Below the pieces are notes generated by a model. The model did not search any database. It had not been told where the DNA came from and was given only the letters and a program-made list of their open reading frames with translations. A program made the translations under genes and the position numbers. Positions 13,899 through 15,148 of a stretch of DNA of 32,000 bases are shown in pieces. Source of the stretch: Candidatus Hermodarchaeota archaeon (lineage in GTDB: Archaea > Asgardarchaeota > Heimdallarchaeia > Hodarchaeales > Hodarchaeaceae); assembly GCA_048886185.1 (NCBI GenBank), contig JBHLKY010000008.1:153047-185046 (forward strand). The letters run 5' to 3'. The first letter of the stretch is position 1; every line of letters starts with the position of its first letter.

Positions 13899-14825
13899 TC
13901 ATAGAACATTCTTTAATACTGCTGCTACAGTGTGTAATCGATTTTCAGCTTCATCGAAAACAACAGAGTGCTTACCATAGATCACGTCATCAGAAACTTC
14001 TTCTTCATGACGAGGGAGGCAATGCATGAAAATAAAGTCCTTGTCTGCATGTTGAATTAATTGTTCATTAACCTGAAAGCCTTCAAACTTTCTCAATTTT
14101 GCTTGTTTTTCAGATTCTTGACCCATTGAAATGAAAGTGTCCGTTACAACAACATTTGCTCCAGAGGCAGCCAATTTAGGATCATTAGTCATTTTAACTT
14201 GCTCAGGTGATGAAGCATTTTTTTTACAGAAATTTAAAACGGTAGAATCTGGTTCATATCCTTCAGGCGTCGCAATATAGATATTCATACCCATTTTTAT
14301 TGAAGAAATCATTAAGGAATGGCATACATTATTACCATCTCCAATCCAAGCAATGGAAACTCCTTTTAGTTTCCCAAGATGTTCTTCTATGGTTAGGATA
14401 TCTGCTAATCCTTGTAGAGGATGAAATAGATCTGAAAGCGCATTAATTACGGGGACGCCAGAGTGTTCAGCAAGAACCTCAACATCGGTATGATCAAAAA
14501 CACGAGCCAAAATCCCAGATACCATACGACCTAATACTTTTGCAGTATCGTGTAGTGATTCGTTGACTCCTAGTTGAATGTCATCCTTTCCTAGAAATAA
14601 AGCATGCCCCCCAAGCTCAACCATTGCTGTTTCGGTCGAAACACGAGTCCGAGTTGATCGCTTTTGAAAAATCATACCTAATGTTTTTCCTCTCAAAGGT
14701 TGATTTTCAATAATTTTCCTTCTGTTTTTCTTAAATTCCTTTGCCTCATCAAGTAAGAATCGGATTTCTTCAGTTGTAAGATCTTTAAGTGTTAATAAAG
14801 AGCGTCCTTTCATGTTTATCGTCAT
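13899..14825 (-). CDS. argF: Ornithine carbamoyltransferase
   Basis: STRTR (carbamoyl-phosphate site), HPLQ, GDGNN, SMGQE, HCLP, EAENR. Confidence 0.96.
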   Translation of the reverse strand: MTINMKGRSLLTLKDLTTEEIRFLLDEAKEFKKNRRKIIENQPLRGKTLGMIFQKRSTRTRVSTETAMVELGGHALFLGKDDIQLGVNESLHDTAKVLGRMVSGILARVFDHTDVEVLAEHSGVPVINALSDLFHPLQGLADILTIEEHLGKLKGVSIAWIGDGNNVCHSLMISSIKMGMNIYIATPEGYEPDSTVLNFCKKNASSPEQVKMTNDPKLAASGANVVVTDTFISMGQESEKQAKLRKFEGFQVNEQLIQHADKDFIFMHCLPRHEEEVSDDVIYGKHSVVFDEAENRLHTVAAVLKNVL

Positions 14826-14845: not shown

Positions 14846-15148
14846 TCATGCTTGATTAAAAATATATCCCCCATGAATTACTGGGATAAATGATATTGTA
14901 TCTTCAGCATTCACTTTTGTTTTCATCCCATCCAATACGGAAATTTCTTGCTCATTGATAAAAATTAGGAGAGATCGCTTTGAGTCTAATGACTCTGTAA
15001 AGAAGCTTTTCAGCTCTTTAAACTGAGAATCTTTTATTAGTTCTGAAACAATATCACGCACAGAATTCCCCGAGGAGATTTGAAAAGAGAGATAATGCTG
15101 GTTTATATCATATCGCAATGATCCTAGGAATTTTAAGCGTATTTTCAT
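14846..15148 (-). CDS. Ubiquitin-fold protein, Urm1/SAMP/MoaD family, with a 6-aa extension after GG
   Basis: KFLGSL...SVRDIV...IFINE...DTISFIPVIHGG-YIFNQA-stop; the C-terminus was checked on the DNA (cat ggg gga tat att ttt aat caa gca tga). Confidence 0.85.
   Translation of the reverse strand: MKIRLKFLGSLRYDINQHYLSFQISSGNSVRDIVSELIKDSQFKELKSFFTESLDSKRSLLIFINEQEISVLDGMKTKVNAEDTISFIPVIHGGYIFNQA

Follow-up and report, generated by a model that had tools for sequence, protein, structure and literature searches.

An ornithine carbamoyltransferase of Hodarchaeales falls in an Asgard short-loop subfamily from which the animal- and fungal-type enzymes probably arose

The metabolic enzymes of eukaryotes are mostly of bacterial origin, and a mitochondrial enzyme is expected to come from the endosymbiont. 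For ornithine carbamoyltransferase (OTC), three eukaryotic groups have been described, the first of which (hereafter group 1) gathers Metazoa, Fungi, oomycetes, diatoms and other stramenopiles at a support of 100/100 and has no named prokaryotic sister; the Lokiarchaeum OTC lies near the second group (Novak et al. 2016, PMC5052871). The opisthokont-stramenopile clade was confirmed by Horak et al. (2020, PMC7542463), in which archaea are unmentioned; argininosuccinate synthase, argininosuccinate lyase, CPS1 and arginase follow that opisthokont-stramenopile pattern too. Among archaea, the arginine synthetase pathway of Thermococcus kodakarensis includes ArcB (Michimori et al. 2024, PMC11032458), and Thermococcales provide a precedent for a pathway built on OTC and carbamate kinase without ArgG, ArgH or carbamoyl-phosphate synthetase (CPS). 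Here we describe the OTC gene of an archaeon of the order Hodarchaeales, located in a window of 32,000 nucleotides (the whole stretch of DNA that was analysed, positions 153,047 to 185,046 of contig JBHLKY010000008.1, assembly GCA_048886185.1). Our results make it likely that this enzyme belongs to an Asgard-specific clade of OTCs with a short HCLP loop, that group-1 eukaryotes obtained their enzyme from inside this clade with Kariarchaeaceae/LC_2 as nearest relatives, that the window copy is a more distant cousin, and that its role, inferred from gene content, is linked to carbamate kinase. No paper that connects OTC with Asgard archaea turned up in our literature searches; the present analysis contributes the Kariarchaeaceae partner, the rejection of Hodarchaeales as sister, a broader range of eukaryotes, a control without the motif columns and the metabolic setting.

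The first evidence comes from short signature motifs. A preliminary description, based on the letters of the window and on reference sequences, had quoted five strings as fungal- or animal-like, and all five were found in the gene, a 308-amino-acid (aa) open reading frame on the minus strand:

13899..14825, minus strand: OTC gene, open reading frame of 308 aa with an ATG start
Alternative start at Met5: 304-aa product, the form called in public data
14631..14663, minus strand: KRSTRTRVSTE, aa 55-65 (typical prokaryotes have K[PSA]STRTRxSFE)
14553..14582, minus strand: DIQLGVNESL, aa 82-91 (typical prokaryotes have LGRGE[ST])
14115..14144, minus strand: TDTFISMGQE (the SMG loop), aa 228-237
14067..14108, minus strand: KQAKLRKFEGFQVN, aa 240-253
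13983..14024, minus strand: HCLPRHEEEVSDDV (the short HCLP loop), aa 268-281, with an HCLP-to-AENR spacing of 21 residues, not 22

The reference states given there agree with alignments to Protein Data Bank (PDB) entries, in which human and sheep OTCs display KRSTRTRLSTE, HLGVNES and HCLPRKPEEVDDEV, and the Pyrococcus furiosus OTC displays KPSTRTRVSFE, QLRRGET and an HCLPAHRGEEV loop that is one residue longer. These typical long-loop signatures (with RRGET) distinguish the Pyrococcus enzyme from the window OTC, whose organism is moreover not a hyperthermophile. Signatures were also examined in fungal OTCs (Rhodotorula, Phaffia and chytrids) and in 80 named non-Asgard prokaryote OTCs from GTDB genomes (L005-L084; among the matches listed, all at no more than 53% identity), which were gathered with generic OTC peptides and serve as an outgroup and a signature control, not as a census of the short-loop type outside Asgard archaea. 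KRSTRTRxSTE, LGVNES and the short HCLPR loop were found in none of these 80 listed OTCs; the HCLP-AENR spacing, measurable in the 74 with both anchors, is always 22 residues, and plant-like OTC representatives have this spacing too. The suspicion that such signatures might be common in prokaryotes thus finds no support among the listed matches, and the loop indel separates the window gene and most group-1 eukaryotes from the 74 listed prokaryotes. Note that a search of a protein-cluster atlas returned generic Bacillota OTC clusters only and is uninformative on the short-loop type. Overall, the window OTC shares with typical ArgF (OTCs of Bacillota, methanogens, haloarchaea and Nitrososphaeria, 45-53% identical) the family model, the domains and the catalytic motifs, but these enzymes differ by the 22-residue spacing, by SFE where the window OTC has STE and by LGRGE where it has LGVNES, and fall outside the clade described below.

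The distribution of the short loop in Asgard archaea was obtained by scanning 400 genomes and reading the motifs of representatives per family. Families carry anonymous codes, of which f1 corresponds to Hodarchaeales (with the window genus), f6 to Kariarchaeaceae/LC_2 and f15 to a Helarchaeota-type family, as assigned through near-identical named proteins. The full signature was found in f1, f15, f5 and f6 and a variant of it in f4, and other OTC types occur in f2 (same order), f7 (same class) and most other Asgard families, so that the eukaryote-like type is not uniform within the order Hodarchaeales. A spacing of 21 residues was observed in the window OTC and in f1, f15, f4, f5, f6, f2, f26 and f27; of 20 group-1 eukaryote rows, 18 have it as well. 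The KRSTRTRVSTE type is common to f1, f4, f5, f6 and group 1, and f15 has S-A-E at its end. DIQLGVNESL is identical in diatom and brown-alga OTCs, and Kariarchaeaceae have LGKNE[ST]. The SMG loop has TDTF in f1, in the f15 group and in the group of an unbinned protein, P0106, and with TDTW in eukaryotes and Kariarchaeaceae. As an example, stramenopile OTCs match the window gene letter for letter in KRSTRTRVSTE, DIQLGVNES and HCLPRH.EEV but have TDTW instead of TDTF. The OTC of Kariarchaeaceae / 'Candidatus Heimdallarchaeota archaeon LC_2' (f5/f6) is likewise a 308-aa Asgard short-loop enzyme with KRSTRTRVSTE, but it has TDTW, HCLPRK, LGKNE and SMGQD and is the direct partner of group 1. Among the sampled prokaryotes, the short-loop subfamily is Asgard-specific, and the window OTC belongs to it by its 21-residue spacing, by the pattern KRSTRTRxS[TAS]E and by its maximum-likelihood (ML) placement, also with the motif columns removed. 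As a side observation, the OTC of f2 (loci L115 and L116 in genomes G078 and G079) is 43-45% identical, has HCLPRT.HEI and stands outside the eukaryote-like clade.

Phylogenetic analyses place the window OTC in one clade with eukaryotic enzymes. In a FastTree tree of 298 rows, Asgard short-loop and opisthokont OTCs form a 61-row clade (support 92) that is sister to Nitrososphaeria. In an IQ-TREE analysis (LG+C20+F+G4 with posterior mean site frequencies, 97 rows and 310 columns) to which named stramenopile and cercozoan sequences were added, eukaryote group 1 and Asgard f5/f6 group together at 96/99 inside a 48-row Asgard frame (95/84), and the f1 clade of the window gene is sister to the f15 group (100/99). 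A 58-row subset recovered a 44-row Asgard and eukaryote core at 96/98. When the sampling was extended by further Kariarchaeaceae and animals and by several transcript-like unknowns (60 rows), eukaryotes and Kariarchaeaceae-like sequences united at 100/97, with the unbinned P0106 type as first outgroup, followed by f4 with (f1+f15), f32, f22/f24 and finally Nitrososphaeria; the supports along the Asgard-only outgroups are 97/85 (P0106 type), 94/96 and 98/90. Note that the P0106-type copy was absent from the five f4 genomes searched, in which the best match was 62-65% identical. In none of these ML trees does the window enzyme nest among bacterial or archaeal ArgF far from eukaryotic OTCs.

Approximately unbiased (AU) tests specify this relationship further. 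An exclusive clade of eukaryotes and Hodarchaeales f1 is rejected (p=0.0004), and so is a clade of eukaryotes with (f1+f15) (p=0.016). An archaeal short-loop core without eukaryotes obtained p=0.042 in the smaller set and is rejected in the better-sampled set (p=0.009). Monophyly is not rejected for eukaryote group 1 (plus P0166) in the 97-row set (p=0.19), nor for all eukaryote-like rows in the 60-row set (p=0.45), where it costs 2.3 log-likelihood units. The preliminary description had proposed that the enzyme is a member of, or sister to, the eukaryotic OTC clade; a shared Asgard subfamily with group 1 inside it stands, but the window OTC is neither a member nor the sister. Indeed, it shares with animal and other group-1 OTCs KRSTRTRxSTE, LGVNES and the HCLPR short loop with its 21-residue spacing, within one supported clade, but it falls outside the eukaryote and Kariarchaeaceae subclade, has no organellar targeting peptide and displays TDTF, not TDTW. 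The simplest reading is that eukaryotic group 1 is monophyletic, has Kariarchaeaceae-type OTCs as its sister and falls within the Asgard diversity. The short-loop clade would then comprise Heimdallarchaeia f1, f4, f5 and f6, the Helarchaeota-type f15 and unbinned relatives; the group-1 OTCs of animals (including human), fungi, an amoebozoan, stramenopiles and a cercozoan would have arisen inside it, with Kariarchaeaceae / Heimdall LC_2 as nearest archaeal relatives and the Hodarchaeales copy as sister to f15. Because group 1 would have arisen inside the clade, the shared motifs would be inherited clade characters and not the product of convergence. A human urea-cycle OTC branch nested among Asgard enzymes would be a specific case, open to testing, of a host-derived metabolic enzyme redirected to mitochondria.

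Global similarity alone would fit a more trivial explanation, in which the window OTC is an ordinary archaeal ArgF without special eukaryote link and the apparent kinship comes from convergence, a tree artefact or eukaryotic contamination of the metagenome-assembled genome (MAG). The identity to animal OTC (53-54%) barely exceeds that to a Bacillota OTC (52%), and the human and Pyrococcus structures match the enzyme equally well. Indeed, with an AlphaFold2 model from an 18-sequence alignment (mean pLDDT 92.1, pTM 0.91), human 1oth and P. furiosus 1a1s are the closest PDB folds, each with a template-modelling (TM) score of 0.93 and 51% identity, the root-mean-square deviation to human OTC is 2.2, and the top 50 fold matches are OTCs or putrescine carbamoyltransferases. 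By sequence, sheep and human OTCs lead in the PDB (339.6 and 336.4 bits) with Pyrococcus just behind (329 bits), the animal mitochondrial enzymes (human 1OTH/1C9Y, sheep 1FB5) being the same enzyme with the same fold and the best PDB sequence match. An early hint of the link to eukaryotes came from an exhaustive HMMER search of 1.84 billion representatives clustered at 50% identity, in which a mitochondrial OTC from the tunicate Styela ranked first (53% identity, 331 bits), followed by fungal OTCs. Against convergence, the clade outlives the removal of all five motif regions: in a tree computed without these 78 alignment columns the core stays at 94/83 (98/95 with f32), and the Asgard and eukaryote clade is therefore not circular. 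Motif convergence is rejected by this motif-free tree, and the starred supports were obtained under site-heterogeneous ML, which speaks against an artefact.

Concerning contamination, the gene has no introns and no leader peptide, its neighbours are archaeal and its synteny is kept across same-genus genomes. The source assembly is 96% complete. The proteins nearest to the window OTC (74-87% identity) are named Hodarchaeales, Hodarchaeota or Heimdallarchaeota, and the public protein P0001 (304 aa) is 100% identical to it. All 21 of the 21 same-genus genomes carry the OTC gene, at 74-87% identity, and the gene order membrane protein, 168-aa protein, OTC, Urm1-like and CofE is kept in those with enough flank. 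Since both carriage and gene order are conserved, the OTC gene is resident in this Hodarchaeales genus, and eukaryotic contamination of the MAG is ruled out by the conserved synteny. In addition, the sole bacterial label in the clade, P0101 ('Candidatus Deferrimicrobium sp.' in NCBI), was rejected as a bacterial member, since it is 100% identical to the OTC at L108 in the GTDB-Asgard genome G123 (f15); its bacterial name probably reflects conflicting taxonomic labels of a single MAG. We consider convergence, artefact or contamination to be highly improbable as an account of this enzyme.

A second alternative concerns the direction of transfer. The f5/f6 OTC might have come from an early eukaryote, in which case the true archaeal sister would be the remaining Asgard short-loop clade, including the window lineage. 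Searches with the f6 protein tie this family to Kariarchaeaceae / 'Heimdallarchaeota archaeon LC_2', and its first matches outside its own group are a transcript of the amoebozoan Copromyxa and transcript-like sequences (65-70% identity), followed by mitochondrial OTCs of vertebrates, cephalochordates and echinoderms (59-61% over the full length), with no bacterial names among the top 120 matches. By comparison, the window OTC and the Kariarchaeaceae OTC share 56-58% identity. Of the eukaryote sequences, the Copromyxa and transcript-like OTCs stand nearest to the archaeal enzymes. A transfer from eukaryotes would explain why free ML trees put Kariarchaeaceae among eukaryotes, with fungi or opisthokonts branching first, why an amoebozoan group joins f6 at 98/91 in the 60-row tree, and why TDTW and HCLPRK are common to Kariarchaeaceae and animals. 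However, the eukaryote paraphyly is weakly supported (94/77, 84/85 and 80/73), joining all eukaryote-like rows costs only the 2.3 log-likelihood units mentioned above (p=0.45), the long fungal branches may be pulled toward the base, and Kariarchaeaceae OTCs have no leader peptide and lie on archaeal contigs up to 634 kb. Such a reverse transfer is thus rather improbable, and even under it the remaining Asgard clade would stay the outgroup of eukaryotic OTCs. As a side observation, P0456 is EukProt EP01127 from Copromyxa protea, and the sequences grouping with it and f6 at 98/91 are the transcript-like metagenomic P0454, P0457, P0458 and P0461; two transcript-like metagenomic OTCs of this f6-linked group have N-terminal extensions, one of which resembles a mitochondrial leader.

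The Asgard origin of group 1 admits a stronger version, which does not contradict it: the last eukaryotic common ancestor would have received this OTC type vertically from a Heimdallarchaeial ancestor, group 1 being ancestral and the other eukaryotic groups later replacements. This would be in line with the span of group 1, which now covers Opisthokonta, Amoebozoa (Copromyxa), Stramenopiles and Rhizaria (a cercozoan), with the AU tests, in which eukaryote monophyly is not rejected (p=0.19 and p=0.45), and with the nesting of eukaryotes in a Heimdallarchaeia-rich clade. In contrast, published trees split eukaryotic OTCs into three groups and put the Lokiarchaeum OTC close to the second (PMC5052871), transfer between eukaryotes could account for the opisthokont-stramenopile grouping (PMC7542463), the sister is Kariarchaeaceae and not Hodarchaeales, and transfers between classes are visible in the Asgard tree, where f1 pairs with f15. 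That the f1 copy groups with a Helarchaeota-type family from a different class points to exchange of the gene among Asgard lineages. We therefore regard strict vertical descent from the host as a possibility to be held tentatively. In any case, OTC is a single-gene signal at odds with the proposed Hodarchaeales sister-group position.

Several points weigh against the origin of group 1 inside the Asgard short-loop clade. The Asgard OTC tree is not vertical, since f1 pairs with f15 of another class and f2 and f7 carry other types, and the short spacing is also found in f2, f26 and f27, all of which stand outside the Asgard and eukaryote clade. The interior of the eukaryote and Kariarchaeaceae clade is an unresolved comb, and free trees put Kariarchaeaceae among eukaryote lineages (94/77; 80/73). 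It should be noticed that the analysis relies on a single gene of about 310 columns, that the bootstrap of the 97-row tree did not fully converge, that several AU groups were defined after the trees were seen, and that eukaryote sampling is thin, groups 2 and 3 being represented by plant-like sequences only.

The gene encodes a full OTC. The roles of STRTR, HPxQ, DxxxSMG, HCLP and the C-terminal Arg (AENR) in catalysis and substrate binding are established from OTC structures, and the window protein has STRTR at aa 57-61, HPLQ at aa 135-138, DxxxSMG (as DTFISMG) at aa 229-235, HCLP at aa 268-271 and AENR at aa 293-296, distributed over two domains:

14382..14804, minus strand: carbamoyl-phosphate-binding domain, aa 8-148 (PF02729, 169.7 bits), which holds STRTR and HPLQ
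13911..14366, minus strand: ornithine-binding domain, aa 154-305 (PF00185, 188 bits), which holds DGNNV, the DTFISMG loop, HCLP and AENR

With the NCBIfam OTC equivalog TIGR00658 the protein reaches 424.6 bits (cut-off 280.85), and the putrescine, N-acetylornithine and aspartate carbamoyltransferase models and YgeW stay below their own cut-offs. Residue 3 of the window OTC aligns to residue 2 of mature human OTC, consistent with a protein devoid of an N-terminal targeting peptide. Altogether, the gene is an intact, ordinary OTC, predicted from its motifs and its modelled fold to be catalytically complete (ornithine + carbamoyl phosphate <-> citrulline + Pi).

In which pathway this reaction takes place is suggested by the gene content. 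In the source genome, argG had no match, argH had weak lyase-family matches only (73 bits vs a cut-off of 279.5) and the best match for the CPS large subunit (carB) remained below cut-off (56 bits), yet carbamate kinase (arcC) is present (372.5 bits vs a cut-off of 358.25). Since ArgG, ArgH and CPS are thus missing from this genome, which distinguishes the window OTC from the animal enzyme, and carbamate kinase is retained, the OTC probably acts outside classical arginine synthesis. The same pattern holds class-wide: among 83 Heimdallarchaeia genomes, argG was found in 1 and carB above cut-off in none, arcC in 74 (all 14 high-quality genomes among them) and OTC in most, and this class-wide lack of ArgG and CPS with a kept carbamate kinase means that 'arginine biosynthesis' annotations in Heimdallarchaeia deserve a second look. 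By analogy, the window OTC most probably connects the citrulline/ornithine pair with carbamoyl phosphate made or used by carbamate kinase, as gene content alone indicates, and the route would be ATP-yielding arginine/citrulline catabolism or carbamoyl-phosphate supply, as in Thermococcales. The P. furiosus OTC (1A1S/1PVV) and T. kodakarensis ArcB are likewise archaeal 'anabolic-type' OTCs in organisms with carbamate kinase instead of CPS (PMC11032458), and the Thermococcales association of OTC and carbamate kinase without ArgG/ArgH is a likely functional analogue. The carbamoyl phosphate of OTC and carbamate kinase possibly also feeds PyrB (aspartate carbamoyltransferase), which is one of three other carbamoyltransferases in the source genome, the remaining two being N-acetylornithine-carbamoyltransferase-like and below all cut-offs. 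Two proteins of the arginine deiminase/dimethylarginine dimethylaminohydrolase (ADI/DDAH) superfamily are candidate citrulline-forming enzymes upstream of OTC:

G000 C10:111653-112549 (L152:851-1780): ADI/DDAH-superfamily protein of about 300 aa, scoring well short of the curated cut-offs for ADI and DDAH
G000 C7:152858-153499 (L154:598-1497): ADI/DDAH-superfamily protein of about 300 aa, far below the curated cut-offs, with one in-frame TGA reported in the match

Three observations count against a catabolic role linked to carbamate kinase. Both ADI-like proteins score far below the curated cut-offs, the carbamate kinase does not lie beside OTC but clusters with two other carbamoyltransferases on contig C11, and by hidden Markov models the window OTC is of the 'anabolic' and not of the catabolic type, the catabolic (ArcB-type) models remaining below cut-off (NF003286, 274.7 of 515 bits; NF002470, 213.6 of 545; NF009213, 189 of 559). 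If, in addition to this role, vertical host legacy is accepted, the human-type mitochondrial OTC would be a direct legacy of the Heimdallarchaeial host, in which, as the lineage has neither ArgG, ArgH nor CPS, it cooperated with carbamate kinase, either to break down arginine/citrulline or to supply carbamoyl phosphate; we consider this combined proposal doubtful. Were it true, an archaeal enzyme with an originally catabolic role would have become the core of the eukaryotic arginine/ornithine-urea pathway and would later have been targeted to the mitochondrion.

Two gene neighbourhoods deserve mention. Next to the OTC gene, one neighbour of the conserved gene order is:

14846..15148, minus strand: Urm1/ThiS-like gene (PF09138, 37.5 bits), 20 nucleotides upstream of the OTC start and on the same strand

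The adjacency of the Urm1/ThiS-like gene and OTC is conserved across the genus, without an evident functional link. On contig C11 (G000 C11:6426-12262; L153:3412-9350), the carbamate kinase lies between two carbamoyltransferases that are below every curated NCBIfam cut-off and for which the best model is N-acetylornithine carbamoyltransferase (270 and 226 bits vs 288). In their vicinity lie genes for a DUF2804 protein, a GNAT acetyltransferase and a TrmB-type regulator, and the cluster may represent an uncharacterised catabolic pathway that yields carbamoyl phosphate. A similar pair of a carbamate kinase and an odd carbamoyltransferase is present in the f4 genome G019, on contig C107.

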